Shown here piece by piece: positions 4,532 through 59,129 of a stretch of 64,000 bases of DNA. Under the pieces are notes generated by a model that made no database searches, was not told the DNA's origin, and saw only the letters and a program-made list of their open reading frames with translations. Each line of letters starts with the position of its first letter. The first letter of the stretch is position 1. Origin of the DNA: Escherichia coli (GTDB lineage Bacteria; Pseudomonadota; Gammaproteobacteria; Enterobacterales; Enterobacteriaceae); assembly GCF_030013595.1 (NCBI RefSeq), contig NZ_CP122768.1. One strand, written 5' to 3'. The translations under genes were made by a program, and so were the position numbers.

Positions 4532-4536
4532 GGGAG

Positions 4537-5439
<903 letters not shown>

Positions 5440-6309: not shown

Positions 6310-6522
6310 ACGGCCTGAGTTGTAATAATAAAGTTCCAGATGTTATATCGTATCGCGTAATCCGTTACGACCGTTTGCTGTTGAGAATTGTTTTACTTTT
6401 CATTTCAATAGTTGACAACTCCCCATTATGCCACTTTTTCAACCGATTTTCGTCAGATATTGGCTAATTCGACCGTTCACGCCATAATCAGCCTTTTAAC
6501 CCGCAAAAAGGTAACGAATACC

Positions 6523-7384: not shown

Positions 7385-7444
7385 CGGCACTTTTTGGTGA
7401 ATTTGCACTCCAAGCAACGTTATTGAATAACCAAAGGAAGTGAC

Positions 7445-8020: not shown

Positions 8021-8031
8021 TTTGCGTCTGA

Positions 8032-9015
<984 letters not shown>

Positions 9016-19681: not shown

Positions 19682-20141
<460 letters not shown>

Positions 20142-20154
20142 GAGAAAAAATTAA

Positions 20155-21006: not shown

Positions 21007-21036
21007 AAAATGGCGCCGATGGGCGCCATTTTTCAC
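21005..21036. terminator. bidirectional intrinsic terminator between convergent pdxK and crr
   Basis: AAAAAATGGCGCCGATGGGCGCCATTTTT palindrome with flanking A and T runs. Confidence 0.65.
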
Positions 21037-21047
21037 TGCGGCAAGAA

Positions 21048-21557
21048 TTACTTCTTGATGCGGATAACCGGGGTTTCACCCACGGTTACGCTACCGGACA
21101 GTTTGATCAGTTCTTTGATTTCGTCCATGTTGGAGATAACAACCGGAGTCAGGGTAGACTTGGCTTTCTCTTCCAGCAGCGGCAGATCAAATTCAATGAC
21201 AGTATCGCCAACTTTCACGCGCTGACCTTCTTCAGCAATACGCTTGAAGCCTTCGCCTTTCAGTTCAACGGTGTCGATACCGAAGTGGACGAACAGTTCA
21301 ACGCCGCTATCAGATTCGATAGAGAACGCGTGGTTGGTTTCAAAGATTTTACCAATGGTGCCGTCTACAGGCGCGACCATTTTGTTTCCAGTTGGTTTGA
21401 TAGCAATGCCATCACCAACGATTTTTTCCGCAAAAACGACATCCGGCACGTCTTCGATATTGACGATCTCGCCAGAGAGCGGAGCAATGATCTCAATAGT
21501 TCCGGTATCCTTCTTGTCGTCGGAAACCAGAGATTTCAGTTTATCGAACAAACCCAT
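21048..21557 (-). CDS. crr: PTS glucose-specific EIIA component
   Basis: 169-aa ORF beginning [16 protein letters not shown]; downstream of ptsI. Confidence 0.95.
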
Positions 21558-21597
21558 GATCTTCTCCTAAGCAGTAAATTGGGCCGCATCTCGTGGA

Positions 21598-23325
21598 TTA
21601 GCAGATTGTTTTTTCTTCAATGAACTTGTTAACCAGCGTCATTAACTCGTCCGTTGTCGGTTGAGCAAGAGCCTGCTCTGCTAACACCTTCGCATCTTCG
21701 AAGTTCGTGTTACGGATAATCTTCTTAATGCGCGGGATAGAAATGGCGCTCATAGAGAATTCGTCCAGACCCATCCCCAGCAACAGAAGTGTAGCACGTT
21801 CGTCGCCTGCAAGCTCACCACACATGCCAGTCCATTTGCCTTCAGCATGAGAAGCATCAATAACTTGCTTGATCAAGTTCAGCACGGACGGTGACATTGG
21901 CTGGTAAAGGTGTGAAATCATATCATTACCACGGTCAACTGCCAGAGTGTACTGCGTTAAATCATTGGTGCCGATACTAAAGAAATCAACTTCTTTGGCT
22001 AAATGACGTGCAATTGTTGCGGCAGCCGGTGTTTCCACCATTACGCCGATTTCAATTGACTCGTCAAACGCTTTACCTTCGTCGCGCAGTTCCTGTTTGT
22101 AGATTTCGATCTCTTTGCGCAGTGCACGTACTTCTTCAACAGAGATGATCATCGGGAACATAATGCGCAATTTACCGAAAGCCGAGGCACGCAGGATAGC
22201 GCGGAGCTGATCGCGCAGGATCTCTTTACGATCCATCGCGATACGGATAGCGCGCCAGCCGAGGAACGGGTTCTCTTCTTTCGGGAAGTTCATGTATGGC
22301 AGCTCTTTGTCGCCGCCGATGTCCATGGTACGAACGATAACCGCCTGCGAGCCACACGCTTCAGCCACTGCTTTGTAAGCAGCAAACTGTTCTTCTTCAG
22401 TGGGCAGCGCGTCGCGGTCCATGAACAGAAACTCAGTACGATACAGACCAACGCCTTCAGCGCCGTTACGCTCTGCACCTTCAACGTCACGAACCGTACC
22501 AATGTTAGCGCACACTTCTACCTGGTGACCGTCCAGCGTAATAGCTGGCAGATCTTTCAGTTTAGCAAGCTCTGCTTTTTCAGAAGCCACTTGCTCCTGA
22601 ACAGCGCGCATTTTATCAATAACTTCGTTGGTTGGATTGACGTAAACCTGATTATTTACGGCATCCAGAATCAGATAGTCGTCATTTTTCACCTGAGAGG
22701 TGACGCTACCGGTACCCACGATAGCAGGCAGTTCCAGAGAACGCGCCATGATAGAGGTGTGGGAAGTACGGCCACCCGCGTCGGTGATGAAACCCAGCAC
22801 CTTCTTCAGGTTCAGCTGTGCAGTTTCGGACGGCGTCAGGTCAGCGGCAACCAGAATGACTTCATCCTGAATGGCGCTCAGGTCGATAATCTTCAGGCCC
22901 AGGATGTTGCGCAGCAGGCGCTTACCGATATCACGTACGTCAGCCGCACGTTCTTTCAGGTATTCATCATCCAGCTCTTCCAGGGCAGAAGCCTGACCTT
23001 CGATAACTTCATGAGCAGCTGCGTCCGCTGTCATGTGCTTATCTTTAATCAGGGCTATGATTTCCTGCTCCAGCTCCTCATCTTCGAGCAGCATAATATG
23101 CCCTTCAAAGATGGCTTCTTTTTCTTCACCGAACGTTTCACCAGCTTTCGTTTTGATCGTTTCCAGCTGGGCTGATGCCTTGGCACGACCGCTCAGAAAA
23201 CGTTCAACTTCCTGATCAACCTGGTCGGCAGAAATTTTTTTCCGGTCAATGACAATTTCGTCTTCTTTCAGAAGCAGAGCTTTACCGAAAGCGATACCCG
23301 GGGATGCTAAAATGCCTGAAATCAT
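21598..23325 (-). CDS. ptsI: PTS enzyme I (phosphoenolpyruvate-protein phosphotransferase)
   Basis: 575-aa ORF; active-site His region [21 protein letters not shown]. Confidence 0.95.
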
Positions 23326-23369
23326 AACCCTACCTTACTTGTGACTGATTTTTAAAAGAACCCGGGAAA

Positions 23370-23627
23370 TTACTCGAGTTCCGCCATCAGTTTAACCAGA
23401 TGTTCAACCGCTTTCTGCTCGTCTTCGCCTTCTGCGGAGATAGTCACAACGGTACCTTGAGTCAGGCCCAGAGTCTGCAGTTTAAACAGGCTTTTCGCGC
23501 TGGCGCTTTTGCCGTTGGAAGTCACAGTAATTTCAGAAGTGAAGCCCTTAGCTTCTTTTACAAACTGGGCAGCAGGGCGGGTGTGCAGACCGTTCGGAGC
23601 GGTAATGGTAACTTCTTGCTGGAACAT
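23370..23627 (-). CDS. ptsH: phosphocarrier protein HPr
   Basis: 85-aa ORF; His15 motif [11 protein letters not shown]. Confidence 0.95.
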
Positions 23628-23959
23628 TGTATTTCCCCAACTTATAGGTTTAGTGTTGTGGAACTAAAGTCTAGCCTGGCGGTTCGACTTTAGCCTGTAT
23701 TGTTAGCGCCAGTTTTTAACAGACGCGACGCACGAAGAGCGCAATACAGTCCATTGCTGGCGGGTGTTGACCGCTGACGTTTCGTACGTCATTAAACATT
23801 ATGCCGCTAAAGGAAGAATTGAACCAAATCATAAAATCGATTCAGCTTTGGCTTTTCCTGTAACGATTAATTTCGCGCATCAAAATAATTAGTCTGGTTA
23901 AATACCAGTTCCGACAGGCTGAATCAATGCCAGGAGGAGCGAAAGTTTGAAGCAGGCCA

Positions 23960-23990
23960 CAAAAAAGCACCTGAAAAGGTGCTTTTTTAC
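23960..23990. terminator. intrinsic terminator downstream of cysK (bidirectional hairpin)
   Basis: AGCACCT-GAAA-AGGTGCT stem-loop flanked by A-run and T-run, 20 bp past the cysK stop. Confidence 0.6.
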
Positions 23991-24010
23991 GCATTTTTAA
24001 CAAGCTGGCA

Positions 24011-24982
24011 TTACTGTTGCAATTCTTTCTCAGTGAAGAGATCGGCAAACAATGCGGTGCTTAAATAACGCTCACCCGATGACGGTAGAATAACCACAAT
24101 ATTCTTGTTGGTAAAGCTTTCATCTTCTTGTAGTTTCAACGCCGCGGCAACAGCTGCTCCAGAAGAGATACCTGCAAGAATACCTTCTTCTTCCATCAGA
24201 CGACGGGCGGTAGAAATGGCTTCTTCATTGGTAATGCCAATGACTTTATCGACCAGCTTGAGATCGAGGTTAGCCGGGATAAAACCAGCGCCAATACCCT
24301 GAATTTTATGCGGGCCAGGTTTAATCTCTTCACCTGCCAGCGCCTGGGCGATAACTGGAGAATCGGTTGGCTCAACGGCGACAGAGATAAGATCGGTCTT
24401 GCCTTTGGTGCCTTTAATGTAGCGGCTGACGCCAGTCAGCGTACCGCCAGTCCCAACGCCAGCAATAAATACATCAACCTGACCGTCGGTATCTTCCCAG
24501 ATCTCCGGACCGGTGGTTTTTTCGTGAATTTCAGGGTTTGCCGGATTGCTGAATTGTTGCAGCAGCAGGTATTTCTCTGGATTGCTGGCGACAATTTCTT
24601 CTGCTTTTTGGATTGCGCCTTTCATGCCTTTAGCACCTTCGGTCAGCACCAGGTTTGCACCTAACGCTTTCAGCAGCTTGCGGCGTTCAATACTCATGGT
24701 TTCTGGCATGGTCAGGGTAAGTTTGTAACCGCGAGCGGCAGCGACATAGGCCAGTGCAATCCCGGTATTACCGCTGGTTGGTTCAACCAGTTCAACGCCT
24801 GGTTTCAGCACGCCGCGCTTTTCGGCATCCCAAATCATGTTAGCACCGATACGGCACTTAACGCTGAAGCTGGGGTTACGAGATTCCACCTTCGCCAGAA
24901 TGCGTCCGTTACCGATGCGATTCAGGCGAACCAGCGGCGTGTGACCGATAGTCAGCGAGTTATCTTCAAAAATCTTACTCAT
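24011..24982 (-). CDS. cysK: cysteine synthase A (O-acetylserine sulfhydrylase A)
   Basis: 323-aa ORF; PLP-lysine motif [10 protein letters not shown]. Confidence 0.95.
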
Positions 24983-25166
24983 GGCCTGTCCTTAACTGTA
25001 TGAAATTGGGATACAACAGGTAGCATACCCGCTCAGAGAATATGCGGAAGTAAGGATTTAGCATATCTATATGCAGAAGGGAAATAATGACATGCAAGAT
25101 GGAATAAGGGGCGGCATAAGCCACCCCTGTTTCACACAAACGGTTTACAAAATAACCGGTAGATTG

Positions 25167-25928
25167 TTACCGCCACATCGCGTGTTTATCGCGATAGCAA
25201 TCGACCCACATCGCCGTCGCACCACAAACGGCAACGGGCATGATGAACAGATTAAGCAGAGGGATCATCGTAAACAGGCTGGTTAAAGCACCAAACTGCA
25301 TATTGGTGATTTTGCGTGTGCGCAGGGCGGTGCGCATCTCTTTAAACGGCACTTTGTGGTTATCGAAGGGGTAATCGCAATACTGGATGGCTAACATCCA
25401 GGCGCTAAACAGGAACCACAGTACCGGCGCGACGGTTTGCCCAATACCAGGGATGAAGTAAAGAATTAGCAATACAATTGCGCGCGGCAGATACCAGGCA
25501 AATTTTTGCCATTCGCGTTTCATGATTCGCGGCACATCTTTCATGATACCGAAAATCCCGGTATCTGGCGGTGTAGCGCCAGTCAATCGTGCTTCCAGTT
25601 GTTCAGCCAATAAACCATTGAACGGAGCGGCAATCCAGTTAGCAATCGTTGAGAAGAAATAGCCAAACACTAACAGCACAGAGATGACAGCCAGAGGCCA
25701 CAACAGATAGCTCAGCCATTGTAACCAGTCCGGAACATAACTCATGAGAGTCGGGATCCAGACATCGAGTTGCGTAAAGAGCCACCAGAATGCGCCCCCC
25801 ATCAACAAAATATTGACCAGCAGCGGTAAAATAACGAAACGCCGAATCCCAGGTTGCGAGACGAGCTTCCAGCCTTGCGCAAAATAGTAAAAACCGCTGC
25901 GTGGGGCAGATGTGAATGATGAAACCAT
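25167..25928 (-). CDS. cysZ: sulfate transporter CysZ
   Basis: 253-aa polytopic membrane ORF; position between cysK and zipA. Confidence 0.9.
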
Positions 25929-26157
25929 AATCAGGATGAGCTCCTTTTGACCAATCCCAGGAAAATTCTGCGTATTTTACCGGGTAATTGCGCAATGGAC
26001 AGTTAGGATATGTTCGAAAAAACAGCAAAAAGCACGATTTCATCTATCTTTGTGCTGTGAAAGTTAATAGTGCACTTGCACTTGAGGTAATCGGCAAATA
26101 CTCTTAGTGAGTAAATGTTTGCCGTGGTGGCAAGGTGTTAGAACAACAGAGAATATA

Positions 26158-27144
26158 ATGATGCAGGATTTGCGTCTGATATTAATCATTGTTGGCGCGA
26201 TCGCCATAATCGCTTTACTGGTACATGGTTTCTGGACCAGCCGTAAAGAACGATCTTCTATGTTCCGCGATCGGCCATTAAAACGAATGAAGTCAAAACG
26301 TGACGACGATTCTTATGACGAGGATGTCGAAGATGATGAGGGCGTTGGTGAGGTTCGTGTTCACCGCGTGAATCATGCCCCGGCTAACGCCCAGGAGCAT
26401 GAGGCTGCTCGTCCGTCGCCGCAACACCAGTACCAACCGCCTTATGCGTCTGCGCAGCCGCGTCAACCGGTCCAGCAGCCGCCTGAAGCGCAGGTATCGC
26501 CGCAACATGCTCCGCGTCCAGCGCAGCCGGTGCAGCAGCCTGCCTATCAGCCGCAGCCTGAACAGCCGTTGCAGCAGCCAGTTTCGCCACAAGTCGCGTC
26601 AGCGCCGCAGCCAGTGCATTCAGCACCGCAACAGGCACAACAGGCTTTCCAGCCTGCAGAACCCGTAGCGGCACCACAGCCTGAGCCTGTAGCGGAACCG
26701 GCTCCAGTTATGGATAAACCGAAGCGCAAAGAAGCGGTGATTATCATGAACGTCGCGGCGCATCACGGTAGCGAGCTAAACGGTGAACTGCTTCTTAACA
26801 GCATTCAACAAGCGGGCTTCATTTTTGGCGATATGAATATTTACCATCGTCATCTTAGCCCGGATGGCAGCGGCCCGGCGTTATTTAGCCTGGCGAATAT
26901 GGTGAAACCGGGAACCTTTGATCCTGAAATGAAGGATTTCACTACTCCGGGTGTCACTATCTTTATGCAGGTACCTTCTTACGGTGACGAGCTGCAGAAC
27001 TTCAAGCTGATGCTGCAATCTGCGCAGCATATTGCCGATGAAGTGGGTGGTGTAGTGCTTGACGATCAGCGCCGTATGATGACTCCGCAGAAATTGCGCG
27101 AGTACCAGGACATCATCCGCGAAGTCAAAGACGCCAACGCCTGA
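26158..27144 (+). CDS. zipA: cell division protein ZipA
   Basis: 328 aa from ATG 26158 ([27 protein letters not shown]-terminal TM); long P/Q-rich linker; C-terminal FtsZ-binding domain. Confidence 0.92.
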
Positions 27145-46134: not shown

Positions 46135-46337
46135 GTTCTATTCCTTATGCGGGGTCAGATACTTAGTTTGCCCAGCTTGCAAAAAGGCATCGCTGCAATT
46201 GGTGCTGAAACGATAAAGTAATTGTGTGACCCAGATCGATATTTACAGGGAGCCTGCCTTTCCGGCGTTGTTGTTATGCCCCCAGGTATTTACAGTGTGA
46301 GAAAGAATTATTTTGACTTTAGCGGAGCAGTTGAAGA

Positions 46338-47303
46338 ATGACAAAGTATGCATTAGTCGGTGATGTGGGCGGCACCAACGCACGTCTTGCTCTGTGTGAT
46401 ATTGCCAGTGGTGAAATCTCGCAGGCTAAGACCTATTCAGGGCTTGATTACCCCAGCCTCGAAGCGGTCATTCGCGTTTATCTTGAAGAACATAAGGTCG
46501 AGGTGAAAGACGGCTGTATTGCCATCGCTTGCCCAATTACCGGTGACTGGGTGGCAATGACCAACCATACCTGGGCGTTCTCAATTGCCGAAATGAAAAA
46601 GAATCTCGGTTTTAGCCATCTGGAAATTATTAACGATTTTACCGCTGTATCGATGGCGATCCCGATGCTGAAAAAAGAGCATCTGATTCAGTTTGGTGGC
46701 GCAGAACCGGTCGAAGGTAAGCCTATTGCGGTTTACGGTGCCGGAACGGGGCTTGGGGTTGCGCATCTGGTCCATGTCGATAAGCGTTGGGTAAGCTTGC
46801 CAGGCGAAGGCGGTCACGTTGATTTTGCGCCGAATAGTGAAGAAGAGGCCATTATCCTCGAAATACTGCGTGCAGAAATTGGTCATGTTTCGGCAGAGCG
46901 CGTGCTTTCTGGTCCTGGGCTGGTGAATTTGTATCGCGCGATTGTGAAAGCCGACAACCGCCTGCCAGAAAATCTCAAGCCAAAAGATATTACCGAACGT
47001 GCGCTGGCTGACAGCTGCACCGATTGCCGCCGCGCGTTGTCGCTGTTTTGCGTCATTATGGGCCGTTTTGGCGGCAATCTGGCGCTCAATCTCGGGACAT
47101 TTGGCGGCGTGTTTATTGCGGGTGGTATCGTGCCGCGCTTCCTTGAGTTCTTCAAAGCCTCTGGTTTCCGTGCCGCATTTGAAGATAAAGGGCGCTTTAA
47201 AGAATATGTCCATGATATTCCGGTGTATCTCATCGTCCATGACAATCCGGGCCTTCTTGGTTCCGGTGCACATTTACGCCAGACCTTAGGTCACATTCTG
47301 TAA
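46338..47303 (+). CDS. glk: glucokinase
   Basis: 321-aa ORF; N-terminal ATP-binding [14 protein letters not shown]. Confidence 0.95.
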
Positions 47304-47521
47304 CTCCTTCCTGTTATATCGGGAGGTAACTCTCCCGATAATCTTTTAAATCATACAGTTAATTCAATTTTTCTTTGTGTCCCCTCACAAGGCCGACCTG
47401 CGTCACACTTCCGTACAGCGGGATTAATTCTCCAGTAAATGCATTATTTGTCTGGTAACGGCGATTTGTTTTGCACGTTCATAATTTCACTCGTCAACTA
47501 TCACTGAATGAGGAATTAACG

Positions 47522-47848
47522 ATGAGTAAGAAACTGATTGCCTTATGTGCCTGCCCGATGGGCCTGGCTCACACCTTTATGGCCGCTCAGGCGCTGGAAG
47601 AAGCGGCGGTAGAAGCCGGTTATGAAGTGAAAATTGAAACCCAGGGCGCGGACGGCATCCAGAATCGTCTGACCGCGCAGGATATCGCCGAAGCGACCAT
47701 CATCATCCACTCCGTGGCGGTTACCCCGGAAGATAACGAACGTTTCGAATCACGCGACGTTTATGAAATCACTTTGCAGGATGCAATTAAAAACGCTGCG
47801 GGCATCATCAAAGAAATCGAAGAGATGATTGCCTCTGAACAACAGTAA
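47522..47848 (+). CDS. fryB: PTS fructose-like EIIB component
   Basis: 108 aa from ATG 47522; active-site Cys in LIALCACPMGLAHTFMAA. Confidence 0.88.
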   Translation: MSKKLIALCACPMGLAHTFMAAQALEEAAVEAGYEVKIETQGADGIQNRLTAQDIAEATIIIHSVAVTPEDNERFESRDVYEITLQDAIKNAAGIIKEIEEMIASEQQ

Positions 47849-47869
47849 TATTCGACAGGGATAATTGTT

Positions 47870-49117
47870 ATGGCCATTAAAAAACGCAGTGCAACCGTTG
47901 TGCCTGGCGCATCCGGTGCGGCAGCGGCAGTTAAGAATCCGCAGGCCTCTAAAAGCAGCTTCTGGGGTGAACTCCCGCAGCATGTGATGTCAGGGATTTC
48001 ACGCATGGTGTCGACCTTAATTATGGGCGGTGTGATCCTCGCTTTCAGCCAGCTTATTGCTTATAGCTGGCTTAAAATTCCTGCTGATATCGGCATCATG
48101 GATGCTCTTAATAGCGGGAAATTCTCCGGTTTCGACCTTTCCTTACTGAAATTTGCCTGGCTGTCGCAGTCCTTCGGCGGCGTGTTGTTTGGTTTCGCCA
48201 TTCCGATGTTTGCCGCTTTTGTGGCGAACTCTATCGGCGGCAAACTGGCGTTCCCGGCTGGTTTTATTGGCGGCTTGATGTCTACCCAGCCGACGCAACT
48301 GCTGAACTTCGATCCCAGCACTATGCAATGGGCGACCTCTTCGCCGGTGCCGTCCACCTTCATTGGTGCGCTGATTATTTCTATCGTTGCTGGTTACCTT
48401 GTGAAATGGATGAACCAGAAAATCCAGTTACCGGATTTCCTGTTAGCGTTCAAAACCACTTTTTTGCTACCGATTCTTTCCGCCATTTTTGTCATGCTGG
48501 CGATGTACTACGTCATCACCCCCTTTGGCGGCTGGATCAACGGCGGTATTCGTGCCGTGCTGACTGCCGCAGGTGAGAAGGGCGCGCTAATGTATGCGAT
48601 GGGGATCGCCGCGGCGACAGCAATCGACCTTGGTGGCCCGATCAACAAAGCAGCTGGTTTCGTTGCCTTCAGCTTTACCACGGACCACGTATTACCGGTC
48701 ACCGCACGTTCTATCGCTATCGTTATTCCGCCGATTGGTCTGGGTCTGGCGACCATTATTGACCGTCGTTTAACCGGCAAACGCCTGTTCAACGCTCAAC
48801 TTTATCCGCAGGGTAAGACCGCGATGTTCCTGGCCTTTATGGGGATTAGTGAGGGTGCGATTCCGTTTGCGCTGGAAAGCCCCATCACCGCCATCCCGTC
48901 GTATATGGTCGGCGCGATTGTCGGCTCAACTGCAGCTGTCTGGCTGGGCGCAGTGCAATGGTTCCCGGAATCCGCTATCTGGGCATGGCCGCTGGTCACT
49001 AACCTGGGCGTCTATATGGCGGGGATCGCGCTGGGGGCAGTCATTACTGCGCTGATGGTGGTGTTCCTGCGTCTGATGATGTTCCGTAAAGGCAAATTGT
49101 TAATCGATAGCCTGTAA
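47870..49117 (+). CDS. fryC: PTS fructose-like EIIC component
   Basis: 415-aa polytopic ORF downstream of fryB. Confidence 0.88.
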
Positions 49118-49131
49118 GAAGGAAAATCCAG

Positions 49132-50217
49132 ATGACATTACTCGCTTCGCTGCGTGACTGGCTTAAGGCGCAACAACTGGATGCGGTGCTTCTCTCCTCA
49201 CGGCAGAACAAACAGCCGCATCTGGGGATCTCCACCGGATCAGGCTATGTGGTGATTAGCCGTGAAAGTGCGCACATTCTGGTGGACTCGCGCTATTACG
49301 CGGATGTCGAAGCCCGCACGCAAGGTTACCAGCTACATTTGCTTGACGCGACGCACACGCTTGCAACCATCGTCAATAAAATCATTGCCGATGAGCAGTT
49401 GCAAACGCTCGGTTTTGAAGGCCAGCAGGTAAATTGGGAAACCGCGCACCGCTGGCAGTCTGAACTCAATGCGAAACTGGTAAGCGCCACGCCGGATGTG
49501 CTGCGGCAAATCAAAACGCCAGAGGAGGTGGAGAAAATCCGCCTCGCCTGTGGGATTGCCGATCGCGGAGCGGAGCATATTCGCCGCTTTATTCAGGCGG
49601 GGATGAGCGAATGCGAGATTGCTGCTGAACTGGAGTGGTTTATGCGCCAGCAGGGCGCAGAAAAAGCCTCTTTCGATACCATTGTCGCCAGTGGCTGGCG
49701 TGGGGCGCTGCCGCACGGCAAAGCCAGCGACAAGATTGTTGCAGCGGGCGAGTTTGTCACTCTCGATTTCGGTGCGCTGTATCAGGGTTACTGCTCTGAT
49801 ATGACGCGTACCTTGCTTGTGAATGGCGAAGGGGTGAGCGCCGAATTTCACCCGCTGTTTGACGTCTATCAGATTGTTTTGCAGGCACAGCTCGCAGCAA
49901 TCTCCGCGATTCGCCCCGGCGTGCGCTGCCAGCAGGTTGACGACGCCGCGCGCCGGGTGATTACCGAGGCTGGATTTGGCGACTATTTCGGTCATAACAC
50001 CGGTCATGCTATCGGTATTGAAGTCCATGAAGATCCGCGTTTTTCACCGCGGGACACCACGACGCTACAGCCAGGCATGTTACTGACCGTGGAGCCGGGG
50101 ATTTATTTGCCAGGGCAAGGGGGCGTGCGCATCGAAGATGTTGTGCTGGTCACCCCGCAAGGCGCAGAAGTGCTCTACGCCATGCCGAAAACAGTGTTGC
50201 TCACGGGAGAGGCATAA
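49132..50217 (+). CDS. ypdF: Xaa-Pro aminopeptidase (M24 family)
   Basis: 361-aa ORF; creatinase/prolidase N-terminal part plus M24 catalytic domain with metal ligands (…[16 protein letters not shown]…[13 protein letters not shown]…). Confidence 0.88.
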
Positions 50218-51254
50218 TGGATTTATCGTTATTAAAAGCGTTGAGCGAGGCAGATGCGATCGCCTCCTCGGAACAGGAAGTACGGCAGATCCTGCTGGAA
50301 GAAGCGGATCGCCTGCAAAAAGAAGTGCGATTTGATGGGCTGGGATCGGTGCTGATCCGACTCAATGAGTCGACAGGTCCGAAGGTGATGATCTGTGCGC
50401 ATATGGACGAAGTGGGATTTATGGTGCGCAGCATCTCCCGCGAAGGGGCGATTGATGTGCTGCCAGTTGGCAACGTGCGCATGGCTGCCCGACAGCTTCA
50501 GCCGGTGCGGATCACCACCCGTGAAGAGTGCAAAATACCTGGCCTGCTTGACGGCGACCGGCAGGGGAATGATGTCAGCGCCATGCGCGTGGACATTGGT
50601 GCGCGCTCGTATGACGAAGTGATGCAGGCGGGAATTCGTCCAGGCGATCGCGTCACCTTCGATACCACTTTTCAGGTTCTACCCCACCAGCGAGTGATGG
50701 GGAAAGCCTTTGATGACCGCCTCGGTTGCTACCTGCTGGTGACGTTACTGCGCGAACTACACAGCGCCGAACTGCCTGCGGAAGTGTGGCTGGTGGCCAG
50801 TTCCAGCGAAGAGGTGGGATTACGCGGCGGGCAAACCGCTACCCGTGCGGTTTCACCGGACGTTGCGATTGTGCTGGATACCGCCTGCTGGGCGAAAAAC
50901 TTTGATTATGGCGCGGCTAACCATCGTCAGATTGGTAACGGGCCGATGCTGGTGTTAAGCGACAAGTCGCTGATTGCGCCGCCAAAACTTACCGCGTGGA
51001 TTGAAACCGTGGCGGCAGAAATTGGCGTACCGTTGCAGGCGGATATGTTCAGCAACGGTGGCACGGACGGTGGGGCGGTGCACTTAACCGGCACTGGCGT
51101 ACCCACAGTGGTGATGGGGCCTGCCACCCGCCACGGACATTGCGCCGCATCGATTGCCGATTGCCGCGACATTTTGCAGATGCAGCAACTTTTATCTGCC
51201 CTTATTCAACGTCTTACCCGTGAGACGGTTGTTCAACTGACGGATTTCAGATGA
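50217..51254 (+). CDS. ypdE: M42-family aminopeptidase
   Basis: 345-aa ORF; start overlaps ypdF stop by 1 nt (TAATG). Confidence 0.88.
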
Positions 51255-51278
51255 TCTCCTGATTAACCCGGAGCGGTT

Positions 51279-53774
51279 ATGTTAACGATTCAATTTCTCT
51301 GTCCTTTGCCTAACGGTATTCATGCTCGTCCGGCGTGGGAACTTAAAGAACAGTGCAGCCAGTGGCAAAGCGAAATCACTTTTATTAACCATCGCCAGAA
51401 CGCAAAGGCCGATGCGAAAAGTTCGCTGGCGCTGATTGGCACCGGCACTTTATTTAATGACAGTTGCAGCCTGAACATTAGCGGCAGCGATGAAGAGCAG
51501 GCGCGGCGCGTGCTGGAAGAGTACATCCAGGTGCGCTTTATCGACAGCGACAGCATCCAGCCAACACAGGCAGAACTGACGGCGCATCCGCTGCCGCGTT
51601 CATTAAGCCGTCTGAATCCTGATTTACTGTACGGCAATGTGCTGGCAAGCGGCGTCGGCGTGGGTACGCTGACCCTGTTACAGAGCGACAGCCTCGATAG
51701 TTATCGGGTAATCCCTGCCAGTGCGCAAGACTCCACCCGGCTGGAGCACAGCCTGGCAACGCTTGCCGAGCAACTGAACCAGCAACTGCGCGAGCGTGAC
51801 GGCGAAAGCAAAACTATCCTCAGCGCCCATTTGTCGCTGATCCAGGATGATGAATTTGCAGGCAATATCCGTCACCTGATGGCAGAACAGCATCAGGGGC
51901 TGGGGGCGGCGGTCATCAGCAATATGGAGCAGGTTTGTGCCAAACTTTCTGCTTCTGCCAGCGATTATCTGCGCGAGCGGGTCAGCGACATTCGCGATAT
52001 CAGCGAACAGCTGCTGCATATCACCTGGCCGGAACTGAAGCCGCGCAACAATCTGGTGCTGGAAAAACCGACTATTCTGGTGGCCGAGGATTTAACCCCA
52101 AGCCAGTTTTTGAGCCTCGATCTAAAAAATCTTGCGGGCATGATTCTGGAGAAAACCGGGCGCACCTCGCATACACTGATTCTGGCCCGCGCCTCGGCGA
52201 TCCCGGTTCTTAGCGGCCTGCCGCTGGATGCGATTGCCCGTTATGCCGGGCAACCGGCGGTGCTTGACGCCCAGTGCGGCGTGCTGGCGATTAACCCGAA
52301 TGACGCGGTGAGCGGTTATTATCAGGTCGCGCAGACGCTGGCGGATAAACGCCAAAAACAACAGGCGCAGGCTGCCGCGCAGCTGGCCTATTCCCGTGAT
52401 AACAAGCGTATTGATATTGCGGCGAATATCGGCACCGCTCTGGAAGCGCCAGGCGCGTTTGCCAACGGCGCGGAAGGCGTTGGGCTGTTTCGTACCGAAA
52501 TGCTCTATATGGATCGCGACAGCGCGCCGGACGAGCAGGAGCAATTTGAAGCCTACCAGCAGGTGCTACTGGCAGCGGGCGACAAGCCGATTATCTTCCG
52601 CACGATGGACATCGGCGGCGATAAAAGCATTCCTTATCTGAATATTCCCCAGGAAGAGAACCCGTTCCTCGGCTATCGCGCGGTACGTATTTACCCGGAA
52701 TTTGCTGGCCTGTTCCGCACTCAACTGCGGGCCATTTTGCGCGCCGCCAGTTTCGGCAACGCCCAGTTGATGATCCCAATGGTTCACAGCCTCGATCAGA
52801 TCTTATGGGTGAAGGGCGAGATCCAAAAAGCGATCGTTGAGCTTAAGCGCGATGGCCTGCGTCATGCAGAGACGATTACGCTGGGTATCATGGTGGAAGT
52901 GCCGTCGGTGTGCTACATCATCGACCACTTCTGCGATGAGGTCGATTTCTTCAGTATCGGTTCTAACGATATGACCCAGTATCTGTATGCGGTCGATCGT
53001 AATAACCCGCGCGTATCGCCGCTGTATAACCCGATTACGCCATCGTTCCTGCGCATGTTGCAGCAGATTGTTACCACTGCGCATCAGCGCGGCAAATGGG
53101 TAGGTATTTGCGGTGAACTGGGCGGTGAAAGTCGTTATCTGCCTCTACTGCTTGGGCTGGGCCTGGACGAGTTAAGCATGAGTAGCCCGCGCATTCCGGC
53201 GGTGAAAAGCCAGCTTCGTCAACTGGATAGCGAGGCGTGTCGGGAACTGGCGCGTCAGGCGTGCGAGTGCCGCAGTGCGCAGGAAATTGAAGCGTTACTC
53301 ACCGCCTTTACGCCGGAAGAAGACGTTCGCCCACTGCTGGCGCTGGAGAATATCTTTGTTGATCAGTACTTTAGTAATAAAGAGCAGGCGATCCAGTTCC
53401 TGTGCGGCAACCTTGGTGTTAACGGGCGTACTGAACATCCGTTTGAGCTGGAAGAAGATGTCTGGCAGCGGGAAGAGATTGTTACTACTGGCGTTGGTTT
53501 TGGCGTGGCGATCCCGCACACCAAATCTCAGTGGATCCGTCATTCCAGTATCAGCATTGCCCGGCTGGTGAAACCGGTTGACTGGCAGTCAGAGATGGGC
53601 GAAGTCGAACTGGTGATCATGCTGACGTTGGGTGCTAACGAAGGGATGAACCATGTGAAAGTCTTCTCGCAGCTGGCGCGCAAATTGGTGAATAAAAACT
53701 TCCGCCAGTCGTTGTTTGCCGCGCAAGATGCGCAAAGCATCCTGACGCTGCTGGAAACGGAATTAACCTTCTGA
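51279..53774 (+). CDS. fryA: PTS multiphosphoryl transfer protein (HPr-like, enzyme I-like and EIIA domains fused)
   Basis: 831-aa ORF; N-terminal HPr-like PNGIHARPAWELKE, EI-like active site GRTSHTLILARASAIPVLSG, C-terminal EIIA-like region. Confidence 0.9.
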   Translation: MLTIQFLCPLPNGIHARPAWELKEQCSQWQSEITFINHRQNAKADAKSSLALIGTGTLFNDSCSLNISGSDEEQARRVLEEYIQVRFIDSDSIQPTQAELTAHPLPRSLSRLNPDLLYGNVLASGVGVGTLTLLQSDSLDSYRVIPASAQDSTRLEHSLATLAEQLNQQLRERDGESKTILSAHLSLIQDDEFAGNIRHLMAEQHQGLGAAVISNMEQVCAKLSASASDYLRERVSDIRDISEQLLHITWPELKPRNNLVLEKPTILVAEDLTPSQFLSLDLKNLAGMILEKTGRTSHTLILARASAIPVLSGLPLDAIARYAGQPAVLDAQCGVLAINPNDAVSGYYQVAQTLADKRQKQQAQAAAQLAYSRDNKRIDIAANIGTALEAPGAFANGAEGVGLFRTEMLYMDRDSAPDEQEQFEAYQQVLLAAGDKPIIFRTMDIGGDKSIPYLNIPQEENPFLGYRAVRIYPEFAGLFRTQLRAILRAASFGNAQLMIPMVHSLDQILWVKGEIQKAIVELKRDGLRHAETITLGIMVEVPSVCYIIDHFCDEVDFFSIGSNDMTQYLYAVDRNNPRVSPLYNPITPSFLRMLQQIVTTAHQRGKWVGICGELGGESRYLPLLLGLGLDELSMSSPRIPAVKSQLRQLDSEACRELARQACECRSAQEIEALLTAFTPEEDVRPLLALENIFVDQYFSNKEQAIQFLCGNLGVNGRTEHPFELEEDVWQREEIVTTGVGFGVAIPHTKSQWIRHSSISIARLVKPVDWQSEMGEVELVIMLTLGANEGMNHVKVFSQLARKLVNKNFRQSLFAAQDAQSILTLLETELTF

Positions 53775-53776
53775 CG

Positions 53777-54634
53777 TTAGCCCTGAAAACGGGCGCTGTA
53801 CTCTCCCGGCGTCAGGCCAAACTGACGCCGGAAGACGCGACAAAAATAGTCGCTGTCCGGAAAGCCGCAACGCTGCGCCACTTCATGAATCGACAGATGA
53901 TATTTCTGCAAAATCATCCTCGCCTTCGCCATTCGCACCCAACGCACATATTCGATAAAACGCATTGTTCCATGCTGCGCAAACAGTTTTGACAGATGAT
54001 TGGGCGTGATATTAAAAAACAGCGCCACGCTCTCACGGGTGAGCGGCTGGGCATAATTATCCTGAACCCAGTTACAAATGCTGTGATAAAGAAAATCGCC
54101 GCGCGGCTGCGAATTGCCCGGCGGCATATTCACCACGTTGCGGCAAAGATGCAGCAAACTTAACACCAGCGGCTGAATGATATTCTGCTCCAGCGGCGAA
54201 CGGCTAAGATGGGTGAGGGCAGTAAGCATTGCTTCACCTTCGCCGCGTTGCAGGCTGGGAAGTTGGATCTGGCGAGCAGGATGCAACAACGACGTGGTGC
54301 GGCTATCGTAAAACGATAACCCAAGCCAGGTCGGCGCGAATACCAGGCTTAACAGCATTACCGGTTTGTTGTTGACCGGTAAATTAGCCGCGCGTGCCGG
54401 AATAAACAGCATTTCTCCTTCCACCATACGTTGCTGCTTTGCTTCCAGCAGATTGCCGTATTCGCCGCGTAGCACGATATCCAGACGGGGAAAATCAATA
54501 CATAAACTGCCCACTGGCAATGAGGCAGGCTGGCTGGCAAACCAGACGCGCCCCAGTAGTTGCGGGTTAAGCACCAGGCCGCTGAACAGATCGGCGAAAA
54601 ATTGTTGATCGGCGGGCAAGCCTGGTGCTTTCAT
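53777..54634 (-). CDS. ypdC: AraC-family transcriptional regulator
   Basis: 285-aa ORF; C-terminal AraC HTH (...IHEVAQRCGFPDSDYFCRVFRRQFGLTPGEY). Confidence 0.88.
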   Translation of the reverse strand: MKAPGLPADQQFFADLFSGLVLNPQLLGRVWFASQPASLPVGSLCIDFPRLDIVLRGEYGNLLEAKQQRMVEGEMLFIPARAANLPVNNKPVMLLSLVFAPTWLGLSFYDSRTTSLLHPARQIQLPSLQRGEGEAMLTALTHLSRSPLEQNIIQPLVLSLLHLCRNVVNMPPGNSQPRGDFLYHSICNWVQDNYAQPLTRESVALFFNITPNHLSKLFAQHGTMRFIEYVRWVRMAKARMILQKYHLSIHEVAQRCGFPDSDYFCRVFRRQFGLTPGEYSARFQG

Positions 54635-54646
54635 GAAAGTTCCCGA

Positions 54647-55381
54647 TTAAAGATGCATTAACTGGCGGAATTCTTTAACTTTGCTGCGGCTGACCGGCAC
54701 TTCAAAATCCAGATCTTTCAGCCGCAGAATATAGGTGTTATTAAACCACGGTTCGATCTCGCGGATTTTGTTCAGATTGACACAAAATGAGCGATGGCAG
54801 CGGAAAAAATGCGACGGCGGCAGCTTGCTGCAAAACTCGGTAATGTTCATCGGCATTACGTAGGATTCACGCCGCGTATAGACAAAGGTCATTTTCTCGT
54901 GCGCTTCGGCGTAATAGATATCGTTAATTGGCGTGACAATGATTCGCTCATCTTTCACCAGATTAATGGTGTCATTCTCACGCGTTACCGTCGCGGCAGG
55001 CGTACTGCTGGTCTGCTGTTGTTGCCAGGCTGCTTCCAGTTTTTGCAGCATCCCGGTAATGCGTGACTCCTGATACGGTTTGAGAATGTAGTCAAACGCC
55101 TCCAGTTCAAACGCTTCTACCGCATGTTCTTTCCACGCGGTGATAAACACAATAAATGGTTTATGGGCGAACTGGCTGATGTTTTGTGCCAGCAACACAC
55201 CATCCAGCGACGGAATATTGATATCCAGAAAAATGGCGTCGACGCGGTTATGCTGCAAAAACTTCAACACGTCCAGACCGTCGTCAAAGGTGCCGACAAT
55301 CTCCATCTGGCTGTGCTCTTTAATTAGCCAGCTCAGTTCCTGTTGTGCCAGGAATTCGTCTTCAACAATGATGACTTTCAC
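54647..55381 (-). CDS. ypdB: LytTR-family response regulator
   Basis: 244 aa from GTG 55379-55381 (MKVIIVEDEFLAQQ...); receiver domain with D at FLDINIP; C-terminal LytTR DNA-binding domain. Confidence 0.88.
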   Translation of the reverse strand: MKVIIVEDEFLAQQELSWLIKEHSQMEIVGTFDDGLDVLKFLQHNRVDAIFLDINIPSLDGVLLAQNISQFAHKPFIVFITAWKEHAVEAFELEAFDYILKPYQESRITGMLQKLEAAWQQQQTSSTPAATVTRENDTINLVKDERIIVTPINDIYYAEAHEKMTFVYTRRESYVMPMNITEFCSKLPPSHFFRCHRSFCVNLNKIREIEPWFNNTYILRLKDLDFEVPVSRSKVKEFRQLMHL

Positions 55382-55395
55382 AATATCACTCCGGC

Positions 55396-57093
55396 TCAAA
55401 GCAATAATGTAGCCTGTGAGGCGACTGGGGTGCGTTGGTTAGGAATGTAAAACGCAATTTCCGTTCCTGGTTCCAGGCGGCGGATATGCAGCCCCTCGCC
55501 ATACAATAACTTCACACGATGATGGACATTCAGCAGGCCAATTTTATTGCCCGGCATTTCATTCGCTTCGACCCGCTCAATCACCTTTGGATCGATGCCG
55601 TGCCCGGTATCTCGCACCGCAATACGTACCCGATTACCGCACTCTGCAACGCTGATGGTGACAACGCCTTTACCTTTGCAAGGCTGGATACCGTGGACAA
55701 TGGCGTTTTCCACCAACGGCTGGATCAGCAGGCTGGGAATGCAGCAATTCACCTCTTCATCAATATCATAGATAACCGTCAGCTTGTCGCCAAAGCGGGC
55801 CTGCTCAATGGCAATATAGTCTTTAATTTGATACAGCTCTTTTTTGATATCGATTTGCTCATCGTCTTTTAATTCAATGTTATAGCGCAGATAACGCGAC
55901 AGATTAAAGATCAGCTGGCGAGCGGTATCCGGATTCAGACGGATTGACGATGAAATAGCGTTCAAAGCGTTAAACAGGAAATGGGGATTAATTTTGCTTT
56001 GCAGGGCGCGAAGCTCTGCCTTATTTGCCATTTCACGTAGCTGCTCGGCGCGTGAAACCTCCAGTTGCGTGGAGATGATTTGCGACAGACCGACCGCCAT
56101 TTCCTGTAATGATGACGTAATCTGATGCGCGTGGCAGTAGTAAATTTTCAGTGTTCCGGTCACAACGCCTTTCTCCCACAATGGGATCACCAGCATGGAA
56201 TGAATCTCTGGTGTGCGGTGGGCTTCATCATTGTTTTTAATGATGATTTTTCCGTAATTCATCGCCTGTCGGGTAGTCGGGCTAATGAAGTCATCGCCAT
56301 TCTGATAGTTGTGTTCACCCACGCCAACATAGGCCAGCACATGATCGGTATTGGTAATCGCCACCGCATCGGCATGAATATCATCGCGGATAATTTCACA
56401 AACTTTGCGTAATGACTCGCTATTGACATGGCGAAACAGCGGCAGCGTTTTGTTGGCGATATCCAGCGCCAGCTTGGCCTGCCGCGCGGCGCTGGCCTCT
56501 TTTTCGCCCTCAACGCTTTGCACCAGCAGCACAATAAAGCCGATACAGACGCTACCGAGGATCATCGGAATCCCGATTTTAGAGACGATATCGATCCCCA
56601 ACGCGGTAGTTGGTGCCCAGACAATCACCAGAATCATGGTCAACGTTTCACATAACATGCCGCCGAGAATACCGACGCGCCAGCGCTGTGCTTTGGGGAT
56701 TTTCAGGTTGATCCAGCCCGATATACAACCCGCCAGAATGCTGGTGATAAAGCAGGGGATCGCCGTCACGCCGCCGATATCAATTAAATACCGGTGAATA
56801 CCCGCAATCACGCCGGTAATGATGCCTACCCACGGGCCAAACAGAATCCCGCCTGACATCACCGCGATAATACGAACGTTCACTAGCGAGCCTTCTACGG
56901 GAACGCCGGACCAGGTGCTGAACAGGGCAAACAGCGAGAAAATGGCGGTAACAGCGAGCAACTCTTTTGGGGAGTGCGCCGACTTGTGCAACAGTTCGCG
57001 AAACAGGCGGATACGGATGAGAAAGAACAGGCAGATAAGCATTAACGCTGCCCGATCGAAGACCGCCAGCAGCATGTTGAATATTTCGTGCAC
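55396..57093 (-). CDS. ypdA: LytS-type sensor histidine kinase
   Basis: 565-aa ORF from GTG; multi-TM N-terminus, GAF-like middle, His-kinase H-box region [18 protein letters not shown] and ATPase domain. Confidence 0.88.
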
Positions 57094-57469
57094 GGGTGAC
57101 TCTGAATAAGGATTAAACCTCTATGATAGGTAACCTGAAGGCTGATGACCAGCAGGCCGTTTTTGAGGAAAAACCACAATTTTAAAAGGGGATTGAAAGA
57201 TAAATGGTGTATTAGCAATGCATCTCTTGATAATGCACATCTGCTTGGTAAATTTATTGAAATTATAATGTTAATAAAATGAGTGGTAATTTTCTTGTTA
57301 GCGCAGATAAATTTCCTGTTTTTGAAGTGGAGTTCCTCATTTAAAGCCATTGATAAAAATGTTCTAAAACGCTGGACAGACAGAAATTAATCAGGCTATT
57401 TTCAAAACAGCCACCATCGTGGCAGCGTCGCTCGGACGGTCCGGGCGCTAACGTTAATCTGAGGAAATT

Positions 57470-58708
57470 ATGGCTGACACTCGCCCTGAACGTCGCTTTA
57501 CGCGCATTGATCGTCTCCCGCCCTACGTTTTTAATATTACCGCTGAACTGAAAATGGCTGCGCGTCGGCGCGGCGAAGATATTATCGATTTCAGTATGGG
57601 TAACCCGGACGGTGCGACTCCGCCGCATATCGTCGAAAAATTATGTACGGTGGCCCAGCGCCCGGACACGCATGGTTACTCCACGTCACGCGGCATTCCG
57701 CGGCTACGTCGCGCCATTTCCCGCTGGTATCAGGATCGCTACGACGTCGAGATCGACCCGGAATCAGAAGCCATCGTCACCATTGGTTCGAAAGAGGGAC
57801 TGGCGCATCTGATGCTGGCGACGCTGGATCATGGTGACACTGTACTAGTGCCTAATCCAAGCTACCCGATTCATATTTACGGCGCGGTGATTGCCGGGGC
57901 GCAGGTACGCTCAGTGCCGCTGGTGGAAGGTGTCGATTTCTTCAACGAACTGGAACGCGCCATTCGCGAAAGTTATCCGAAACCGAAGATGATGATCCTC
58001 GGCTTCCCGTCGAACCCAACCGCGCAATGCGTGGAACTGGAATTCTTTGAGAAGGTTGTGGCGCTGGCAAAACGCTACGATGTGCTGGTGGTCCATGACC
58101 TGGCCTATGCCGATATCGTCTACGATGGCTGGAAAGCGCCGTCAATCATGCAGGTGCCGGGCGCACGCGACGTGGCGGTCGAGTTCTTTACCCTGTCGAA
58201 AAGTTACAACATGGCGGGCTGGCGTATCGGCTTTATGGTTGGCAACAAAACGCTGGTCAGCGCGTTGGCACGTATTAAAAGCTATCACGATTACGGCACC
58301 TTTACGCCGTTGCAGGTGGCAGCGATTGCGGCGCTGGAGGGCGATCAACAGTGCGTGCGCGACATTGCTGAACAGTACAAACGCCGCCGTGATGTACTGG
58401 TAAAAGGGCTGCATGAAGCGGGCTGGATGGTCGAAATGCCGAAGGCTTCGATGTATGTCTGGGCGAAAATCCCGGAACCGTATGCTGCCATGGGCTCGCT
58501 GGAATTTGCCAAGAAGCTGCTGAACGAAGCGAAGGTCTGTGTCTCTCCGGGGATTGGCTTTGGCGACTACGGCGACACGCATGTTCGCTTTGCACTGATT
58601 GAAAACCGCGACCGTATTCGTCAGGCGATTCGTGGGATTAAAGCGATGTTCCGTGCCGATGGTTTACTACCCGCCAGCAGCAAACATATTCACGAAAACG
58701 CGGAATAA
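57470..58708 (+). CDS. alaC: glutamate-pyruvate aminotransferase
   Basis: 412-aa ORF; fold-type I aminotransferase with PLP-lysine in [14 protein letters not shown]. Confidence 0.9.
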
Positions 58709-58726
58709 ACACCGACCTCAAAAATG

Positions 58727-58756
58727 CAAACAGGAGCCTGATGGCTCCTGTTTTTC
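58727..58756 (+). terminator. intrinsic terminator after alaC
   Basis: CAGGAGCC-TGAT-GGCTCCTG hairpin followed by TTTTTCATT. Confidence 0.7.
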
Positions 58757-58772
58757 ATTGCACAGTTTGCTT

Positions 58773-58844
58773 TTAGATCATCAGGGCAAAAGTACCGGCC
58801 CAAACGATGACCATAAAAGAAATGCCCATAAAGAAATATTTCAC
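58773..58844 (-). CDS. ypdK: 23-aa small membrane protein YpdK
   Basis: GTG 58842-58844 with GGAGAG RBS upstream; translation MKYFFMGISFMVIVWAGTFALMI; stop TAA 58773-58775; below the 60-aa track cut-off. Confidence 0.65.
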   Translation of the reverse strand: MKYFFMGISFMVIVWAGTFALMI

Positions 58845-59129
58845 TTTACATCTCTCCGCGTAATTACTGTTACGCCTGAATGACTTCATTACACCTGATA
58901 CAGTGAGTTGACACCGGGCAAAACGACCTTAAAAGTCCTGTATTTTACCGTGGGCATCACCCCAGAATTCTGAGCTAAACTGCTCCAGACGGCGCTAATG
59001 TACGCCTAAAACTGAAACGAGACAAGAGGCATTTTCTTATTTACTTTTAGTAACTTACAGGTGTCTCATATCGGCGACAGTTTAATTTCTGACGGTAATA
59101 ATTAGAGATTCAGCGAAGGAAAAAACCTT

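Follow-up and report, generated by a model that had tools for sequence, protein, structure and literature searches.

The fry operon of Escherichia coli (fryB-fryC-ypdF-ypdE-fryA) lies at 47522-53774 on the plus strand of a 64,000-nucleotide stretch of contig NZ_CP122768.1 (assembly GCF_030013595.1; this whole stretch is called the window below) and encodes the components of a phosphotransferase system (PTS) together with two aminopeptidases. Our results showed that this coupling of PTS and peptidase genes is recurrent and conserved from E. coli to gut clostridia, and sequence comparison indicates that the E. coli cassette is the enterobacterial version of one shared with the Firmicutes. The most far-reaching interpretation, whose chances we rate somewhat below even, is that fry is the E. 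coli member of an undescribed cross-phylum PTS pathway for glyco-amino-acid or glycopeptide nutrients. In such a pathway, peptidases (M24 with M42 or M20), mostly together with a PatB-type β-lyase, would replace the glycosidase, and the α-mannoside systems that use glycoside hydrolase family 38 (GH38) would have the same sugar head group. The reading that we favor is its more general part, namely that a sugar linked to an amino acid or a peptide is taken up as a small conjugate, phosphorylated, and then trimmed by the peptidases; in our estimate it has an even chance of being right. The locus itself is the annotated operon b2387-b2383 of E. coli K-12 and a feature already known. An earlier prediction made from the letters of the window (the original prediction) had said that the substrate is not known, and the open literature found still calls it unknown and assigns no function to the operon (PMC5364489).

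Distribution of the PTS-peptidase cassette

We searched 1.84 billion representative proteins exhaustively with FryC and obtained a small family, of which 51 representatives lay at E < 1e-30. Scanning of one genome per species gave 80 loci with FryC relatives (50-99% identity), which were classed by open reading frames (ORFs) and BLASTP plus tblastn. Type A, with the order IIB-IIC-M24-M42-FryA, was found in Enterobacterales (36 loci, of which 34 were long enough). Type B consisted of 15 loci of Firmicutes (Enterocloster, Hungatella, Ruminococcaceae, Lachnospiraceae, Breznakia, Caproiciproducens, and others) with the order PRD (PTS regulation domain) regulator-IIA-IIB-IIC-M24-M42-“aminotransferase”. 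Type C, with the order M20-PRD regulator-IIA-IIB-IIC-M24-“aminotransferase”, was found in nine loci of C. difficile, Clostridium, Pelosinus, Lucifera, Caloramator, Geosporobacter, and Anaerosolibacter, and in three Rahnella loci without the PRD regulator, the IIA, and the lyase. Type D (17 loci in Hungatella, Leptotrichia/Sebaldella, S. suis, Tissierellia, Peptoniphilaceae, and BVAB1) had the order IIA-IIB-IIC-GH38. The order IIC-M24-M42 was shared by 34 Enterobacterales and 15 Firmicutes, and M20 took the place of M42 in 12 species. The median gap was 16 nt from IIC to M24 and -1 nt from M24 to M42. The M24 and M42 proteins of the Firmicutes matched the YpdF and YpdE models of NCBIfam best (352 and 393 bits). 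A dedicated protein combining enzyme I (EI), HPr, and IIA was found in the enterobacterial version only; the Firmicute versions carried PRD-type regulators. The original prediction had called the pairing of PTS and peptidases unusual, which was an overstatement, given that all three M42 paralogs of E. coli lie in PTS operons and that the pairing was found in at least 61 sampled species.

A gene order kept with near-zero gaps in 49 species of two phyla argues against the alternative that survives best, namely that FryBC takes up a plain hexose or hexitol and that YpdF and YpdE are general aminopeptidases merely co-expressed with it, for example through carbon-nitrogen coordination or a selfish-operon accident. 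The same holds for the swapping of M42 for another peptidase in type C rather than its loss, and for the physical overlap of an IIABC gene with the M24 gene in one locus (L004). Moreover, beyond the partners listed above, no gene family recurred in the gene runs of the 80 loci, and the genes of sugar catabolism (kinase, aldolase, isomerase) never accompanied the cassette. We consider this alternative unlikely, although FryB, FryC, and the IIA domain of FryA score as fructose-family components, both peptidases reportedly cleave ordinary peptides in vitro, and the E. coli operon contains no sugar-releasing enzyme.

The “aminotransferase” that follows M24 or M42 scored 307-357 bits against TIGR04350 (cutoff 340), and its homologs in the PDB included PatB, cysteine-S-conjugate lyases, cystalysin, and MalY. 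Judged by its sequence, the protein of types B and C is a predicted PatB/MalY-family C-S β-lyase dependent on pyridoxal phosphate (PLP). The M20 protein of type C was a PepV/Sapep-type dipeptidase. Of the 24 PRD-regulated Firmicute-type loci, 23 contained the lyase gene and one, the truncated L062, did not; the gene was also present in locus L046, and it was absent from the window, from 33 of the 34 complete enterobacterial loci, and from the three Rahnella loci. In L046, which belongs to a metagenome-assembled genome of divergent Enterobacterales, two extra M20 hydrolases and an Ldh_2-family dehydrogenase preceded the cassette and the PatB-like lyase came after it (3078-8231); this cluster may represent a fuller ancestral pathway.

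The nearest non-ortholog of FryC was an IIABC fusion protein with 54% identity (P0123), whose contig carried overlapping genes for RidA, an alanine-dehydrogenase-like protein, RpiR, IIABC, M24, M20, and the “aminotransferase”. The next relatives of FryC (39-44% identity) were followed by a GH38 α-mannosidase, GH13, and a glycerate kinase. Over its full length, the GH38 protein of type D was homologous to MngB of E. coli (29% identity, E = 9e-114). GH38 was present in the 17 sister loci of that type, and ORFs and Pfam revealed none next to fryC in the window. Downstream of the GH38 gene in Hungatella lay a lactate permease, EtfAB, and a flavin adenine dinucleotide (FAD)-oxidase set (L048, 14273-20383) or a D-2-hydroxyacid dehydrogenase (L051, 14099-15055), which hints, ambiguously, at a 2-hydroxy acid as the aglycone of these clusters. 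In the literature searched, we did not encounter the cross-phylum cassette together with its PatB-type lyase and GH38-linked sister systems, and searches for the gene names gave incidental mentions only.

The original prediction had suggested a glycopeptide or amino-sugar conjugate as the substrate. Its amino-acid or peptide moiety has gained comparative support, because the order IIB-IIC-M24-M42 crosses phyla with tiny gaps, M42 is exchanged for M20, and a PatB-type lyase joins the cassette outside the lineage of E. coli; the conjugate itself is hypothetical.

Relationships of the transporter

In a neighbor-joining (NJ) tree of the IIC proteins (413 columns, 100 bootstraps), a crude distance-based tree with unreliable deeper nodes, the 80 IICs and P0123 formed one clade with a bootstrap value of 100, apart from the group linked to GH38, GH13, and glycerate kinase and from MngA, FrwC, and FrvB of E. 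coli. Type A was recovered with a bootstrap value of 100 and type B with 98. Type B joined the GH38-linked loci of Hungatella at 83, and these together joined type A at 88. The GH38-linked IICs, with 50-62% identity to FryC, lay within the FryC clade, and a single clade of “peptidase-linked” IICs was rejected (bootstrap 0). In these sequence comparisons, the peptidase-linked and GH38-linked permeases appear as interleaved close relatives, not as two families.

The pairing of the nearest transporters with α-mannosidases and not with fructosamine enzymes speaks against a second alternative, in which the substrates would be glycated (Amadori, fructosamine-type) peptides or amino acids. The PTS would then add phosphate to the fructosyl group, trimming by the peptidases would leave a fructosyl-amino-acid phosphate, and Frl-type deglycases encoded elsewhere would finish the breakdown. 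This idea came from the original prediction and fits the fructose family of the components, and Gfr of Salmonella and Frl of E. coli give a precedent for PTS pathways of sugar-amino-acids. We hold it to be quite improbable. The β-lyase accompanying the cassette does not cleave Amadori C-N bonds, and none of the 63 peptidase-type loci had an SIS-domain deglycase or amadoriase within it or next to it. Likewise, neither an SIS-domain deglycase nor a fructosamine kinase was present among the nine window proteins or in the recurrent gene families of the 80 loci.

Sequence features of the PTS proteins and peptidases

FryB matched PTS_IIB of Pfam and TIGR00829 (92.2 bits against a cutoff of 76.85), and its phospho-cysteine C11 was located within CACPMGLAHTFMAA, which fits the fructose-family IIB motif CPxGxAHT. 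FryC matched PTS_EIIC (PF02378, 49.8 bits against 30.7) and scored 152.6 bits against the fructose-specific IIC model TIGR01427, slightly below the cutoff of 157.55. It shared 27-28% identity with MngA, FrvB, and FrwC of E. coli (MngA, 27%) and 62-64% with its Firmicute homologs, and is classified on these scores as a divergent branch of the fructose-family IIC. The Pfam domains of FryA were, in order, HPr (residues 6-84), EI (119-650), and EIIA_2 (687-826). The IIA(Fru/Mtl) domain, with H747 in GVAIPH, scored 109.8 bits against PF00359 and 140.7 bits against TIGR00848 (cutoff 103.5); the EI domain, with the motifs GRTSH(298)T and C611GELGG, scored 505 bits against TIGR01417 (cutoff 341.7); and the HPr domain, with the motif GIH(15)ARPA, scored 52.9 bits against PF00381 (cutoff 23) and fell below the stricter TIGR01003 (39.1 against 47.9 bits). 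All of the active-site residues of FryA (H15, H298, C611, and H747) were intact. The fry operon encodes a complete private phosphorelay plus a permease. The HPr-EI-IIA fusion is not unique to FryA, as its paralog PtsA (K-12 b3947, beside frwCBD) is 45% identical to it over the full length.

A regulatory phosphorelay resembling the nitrogen PTS (PTS-Ntr), in which FryA and FryB would mainly signal, for example to the peptidase activity or to YpdC, instead of feeding catabolism, is very doubtful. The restriction of the dedicated EI-HPr-IIA protein to the enterobacterial version would agree with it, as would the altered fitness of an in-frame fryA deletion, which improves after prolonged culture in lysogeny broth (LB) (PMC5364489). 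However, the operon retains a full IIC permease with conserved motifs under purifying selection (ratio of nonsynonymous to synonymous substitution rates, dN/dS, of 0.036 for fryC against K-12), and the Firmicute versions use PRD-type regulators like ordinary catabolic PTS operons.

YpdF contained Creatinase_N and Peptidase_M24 domains (PF00557, 246 bits; NCBIfam PRK09795, 809 bits), and its five metal ligands D212, D223, H292, E321, and E335 matched the ligand columns of the prolidase 1PV9. Its structure has been solved (PDB 5CNX, “Aminopeptidase YpdF”). YpdE was a Peptidase_M42 protein (PF05343, 286 bits; PRK09961, 680 bits), the ortholog of which from Shigella has the structure PDB 1YLO (match E = 8e-225). 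Residues H62, D166, E198, E199, D221, and H308 of YpdE were intact, and the metal ligands were invariant in YpdE, FrvX, and SgcX. From their sequences, YpdF and YpdE appear to be two active aminopeptidases that are translationally coupled to each other. One paper gives three M42 enzymes for E. coli and names Zheng et al. 2005 for the characterization of YpdE (PMC3511314). Some E. coli assemblies contained fused FryC-YpdF (657-688 aa) or FryC-M42 (653 aa) products (P0081, P0082, P0111, and P0085), which implies that natural frameshifts or deletions have joined the permease to a peptidase in these assemblies.

Organization of the fry locus

ORF calling placed the five genes on one strand (Table 1), and RefSeq annotates the same five genes in an E. 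coli genome that is 100% identical, where fryA is named “ptsP”. Complete-genome comparison identified the window as E. coli chromosome and showed 100% identity over 47000-54500 to two pig isolates. The original prediction had given the gene order and coordinates exactly, as ORFs and RefSeq agree, and it was also right about the overlap of the ypdF stop with the ypdE start, which share one base in TAATG (-1 nt), and about the HPr-EI-IIA domain order of FryA.

Table 1. Features of the fry locus and its boundaries, with positions counted from the first letter of the window
Feature	Position	Strand	Evidence
fryB, PTS enzyme IIB (fructose family), phospho-Cys C11	47522..47848	+	PF02302 1e-19, TIGR00829, motif CACPMGLAHTFMAA
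fryC, PTS enzyme IIC permease, divergent fructose-family member	47870..49117	+	PF02378, TIGR01427 just below cutoff
ypdF, M24B Xaa-Pro-type aminopeptidase	49132..50217	+	PF00557 and PF01321, PRK09795, PDB 5CNX
ypdE, M42 aminopeptidase	50217..51254	+	PF05343, PRK09961, PDB 1YLO
fryA, multiphosphoryl transfer protein HPr-EI-IIA(Fru)	51279..53774	+	five Pfam domains, TIGR01417, TIGR00848
Conserved direct repeat TCCAGTAA-N12-TCTGGTAA, candidate YpdC operator next to the -35 position	47431..47458	+	cross-genus alignment
Putative -10 hexamer CATAAT, no recognizable -35	47480..47485	+	invariant in cross-genus alignment
glk intrinsic terminator, upstream boundary of the fry transcription unit	47317..47340	+	10-bp GC-rich stem, then T-run
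ypdC, AraC-family regulator, convergent with fryA	53777..54634	-	PF12833, PF00165

Read from the sequence, the remaining gaps were 21 nt between fryB and fryC, 14 nt between fryC and ypdF, and 24 nt between ypdE and fryA, and a Shine-Dalgarno sequence preceded every start codon. The fry locus is a real gene cluster and not a chance pattern. The gaps of -1 to 24 nt, the sole terminator, which precedes fryB, and the lack of a consensus promoter before ypdF and ypdE favor the co-transcription of the five genes as one operon, and they are given as one transcription unit in the literature (PMC2731931). The convergent stop codons of fryA and ypdC were 2 bp apart (53772-53779), and the terminator scan of 46200-57600 found no terminator after fryA, so the two transcripts must enter each other's coding regions.

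The annotation pipeline PGAP/RefSeq calls fryA “ptsP” in most E. coli genomes; the gene encodes HPr-EI-IIA, not the EI(Ntr) of the nitrogen PTS (51279-53774; L001, 10280-12775). The true general ptsI is found in the same window, some 25 kb upstream of fryA (20000-27000). Directly upstream of fryB, on the same strand, is glk (46338-47303) in Escherichia, Citrobacter, Salmonella, and Kluyvera; dcuC and rna occupy this place in Enterobacter-type genomes. Since the upstream gene differs by genus, the adjacency of glk is not functional. The dcuC and RNase I genes were judged unrelated to fry, as were those that separate fryA from ypdC in Citrobacter and Kluyvera. An Rfam scan of 44-59 kb gave zero matches.

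Putative promoter and regulator

The direct repeat upstream of fryB occurred once in the window. With at most 4 mismatches and at a fixed distance to the fryB ATG, it was found in 35 of the 36 type A loci of Enterobacterales, regardless of the upstream gene. The hexamer CATAAT was fixed at 29-36 nt from the fryB ATG in most loci. The sigma-70 scan of 46200-57600, in which the promoter and terminator site count was no higher than in shuffled sequence, detected neither a full promoter upstream of fryB nor a sigma-70-like site before ypdF or ypdE. A CATAAT element without a -35 suggests that the fry promoter is activator-dependent, and we infer that the repeat is a candidate operator for the AraC-type activator YpdC.

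Of 32 Enterobacterales species, 29 had a YpdC homolog beside the operon and 11 had YpdAB there; YpdC was found without YpdAB nearby in 18 species, and YpdAB without YpdC in none. Since YpdC travels with fry and YpdAB mostly does not, YpdC is probably the dedicated activator of the operon. The adjacency of YpdA/YpdB to fry is lineage-specific, and these counts make control by YpdA/YpdB, which the original prediction had considered, unlikely. The K-12 annotation puts ypdC in ypdA-ypdB-ypdC (53777-57093); across species (loci L012-L047) its partner was fry, not ypdAB. The genes ypdA and ypdB are now named pyrS and pyrR in the K-12 RefSeq. CRP control was rejected as a candidate: there were 31 consensus matches against 26 expected, and the weak site at 47374-47389 was Escherichia-specific and was not used.

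Maintenance in E. coli

Of 5426 complete E. coli genomes, 5424 carried the fry locus. The proteins of the window were 96.7-100% identical to those of K-12, with identical gene order, lengths, and junctions, and the five fry genes showed a synonymous rate (dS) of 0.07-0.20 and dN/dS of 0-0.09 against K-12. These genes are under purifying selection and are not decaying. In addition, ypdE is a fitness gene of uropathogenic E. coli (UPEC) in the mouse bladder, where its deletion reduces colonization, as validated by a competitive index of 0.30 (PMC8767336). The word “cryptic”, used in the original prediction, thus describes an operon silent in the laboratory and does not suit one that is selected and contributes to bladder fitness. 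It is highly improbable, and was already disfavored, that fry is an evolutionary relic, a silent operon with no present function in E. coli: the lack of a -35 element, of a known inducing condition, and of YpdC activity in ChIP-exo (PMC8464067), the missing lyase step of other taxa, and the fused or truncated fryC-ypdF products in some assemblies would agree with it, whereas the near-universal presence of the locus, the low dN/dS, the fully intact catalytic residues, the conserved promoter footprint, and the ypdE phenotype in vivo contradict it.

The window carried a divergent allele at 48500-54500 (and also at 57500-59000), with 95.5-96.9% nucleotide identity to K-12 against 98-99% in the flanks. 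Identity of at least 99% over 47000-54500 was found in only 2 of about 5400 genomes, and over 20000-27000 of the window in 3514 genomes. This suggests that the divergent fry-ypdC segment is an old recombinant import or reflects balanced alleles.

Proposed pathway

A PTS IIC imports and phosphorylates its substrate. In the MngA/MngB system, mannosyl-glycerate is imported and the phospho-conjugate is split in the cytoplasm; in staphylococci, a dipeptidase and a PatB lyase dismantle Cys-Gly conjugates. In the pathway proposed for fry, phosphate would pass from phosphoenolpyruvate (PEP) to the EI (H298), HPr (H15), and IIA (H747) domains of FryA, then to C11 of FryB, and from there to the substrate bound by FryC. 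FryC would import a hexose-type sugar joined to an amino acid or short peptide, and FryB would phosphorylate this conjugate. The head group is possibly α-mannoside-like, because the closest transporters, with up to 62% identity to FryC, pair with a MngB-like GH38. In the cytoplasm, YpdE, with its broad specificity, and YpdF, acting on Xaa-Pro bonds, would strip amino acids off the phosphorylated conjugate, so that the peptidases would form a “deconjugating” module holding the place of GH38 in the sister systems. In Firmicutes, the PLP β-lyase would complete the release, which is consistent with the presence of RidA and the alanine-dehydrogenase-like gene in one cluster (the P0123 contig); this step is absent from the E. 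coli operon. YpdC would be the likely substrate-responsive activator at the 47431-47458 repeat. In frvABXR, an M42 protein is the sole enzyme, which suggests that a peptidase acting alone could yield a central metabolite, for instance by splitting the bond between an aminoacyl group and a sugar. Among the candidate substrates of fry are O-glycosyl-Ser/Thr peptides, S-glycosyl-Cys conjugates, and N-aminoacyl-hexosamines.

Several points weigh against this pathway. To our knowledge, no PTS permease carries a peptide-bearing substrate, and we know of no inducer of fry. A 2005 study by Zheng and colleagues reportedly showed in vitro hydrolysis of ordinary peptides without modification by YpdE and YpdF, and therefore a sugar-phosphate substrate is not required. 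No gene of the E. coli operon encodes a glycosidase, deglycase, or lyase that could release the sugar phosphate, the peptidase-linked IICs were not monophyletic in the crude NJ tree, and YpdC gave no peaks in chromatin immunoprecipitation with exonuclease treatment (ChIP-exo) under laboratory conditions (PMC8464067). The cassette also occurs in non-host anaerobes, among them Pelosinus, Caloramator, and Geosporobacter. This makes a substrate specific to host mucin unlikely, and such a candidate was down-weighted in view of these soil and sediment anaerobes.

The fry operon belongs to the “y-ome” of E. coli, being conserved, selected, and of unsolved function. If true, a cross-phylum pathway for sugar-amino-acid or sugar-peptide conjugates would explain why every M42 “aminopeptidase” of E. 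coli sits in a PTS operon. Identification of the substrate would establish sugars bearing amino acids or peptides as a new class of PTS nutrients and would give a physiological role to the M42 and YpdF-type M24 peptidases, which are now filed as generic peptide scavengers. It could also explain the urinary-tract fitness effect and why gut clostridia, C. difficile among them, carry the cassette. Our comparisons point to YpdC as a candidate regulator, to a candidate operator, and to a short list of chemistries that the substrate may have.

Comparison with known systems

The operon fryB-fryC-ypdF-ypdE-fryA of K-12, together with ypdC (b2382), is orthologous to that of the window, which differs from it by the locally divergent allele. 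MngA/MngB (E. coli b0731-b0732, for 2-O-α-mannosyl-D-glycerate), with the GH38-linked IIA-IIB-IIC clusters of Firmicutes and Fusobacteria, resembles fry in that a fructose-family PTS imports a conjugate on which a cytoplasmic hydrolase then acts. In fry, however, the hydrolase module consists of two peptidases instead of a glycosidase, FryB and FryC are split, and EI and HPr are dedicated.

Two other E. coli operons also place an M42 gene within a PTS operon, with the genes overlapping. In frvA-frvB-frvX-frvR, the M42 gene overlaps a PTS gene and there is no other enzyme (FrvX, 37% identity to YpdE); sgcX-sgcB-sgcC-sgcQ-sgcA-sgcE-sgcR encodes SgcX (33% identity to YpdE). Unlike fry, both lack the M24 partner and the EI/HPr fusion, and sgc has a galactitol-family IIC and the extra enzymes SgcE and SgcQ. 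PtsA with frwCBD is, like FryA, an HPr-EI-IIA protein, but is linked to pflD/pflC-type genes and not to peptidases.

The cassettes outside E. coli are comparable to the thioalcohol pathway of Staphylococcus hominis, in which a dipeptidase and a PatB C-S lyase act on cysteine conjugates, and to E. coli malX-malY (a PTS with the MalY lyase), since they combine a PepV/Sapep-type or M42 peptidase with a PatB/MalY-family lyase, an arrangement in which trimming would be followed by β-elimination. The operon of the window has no lyase, and S. hominis uses a peptide transporter, not a PTS, for uptake. Salmonella gfr and E. coli frl take up and catabolize sugar-amino-acid conjugates, in the case of Gfr through a PTS; these systems differ from fry in their SIS-domain deglycases and in the use of a mannose-family PTS (Gfr) or a kinase (Frl).

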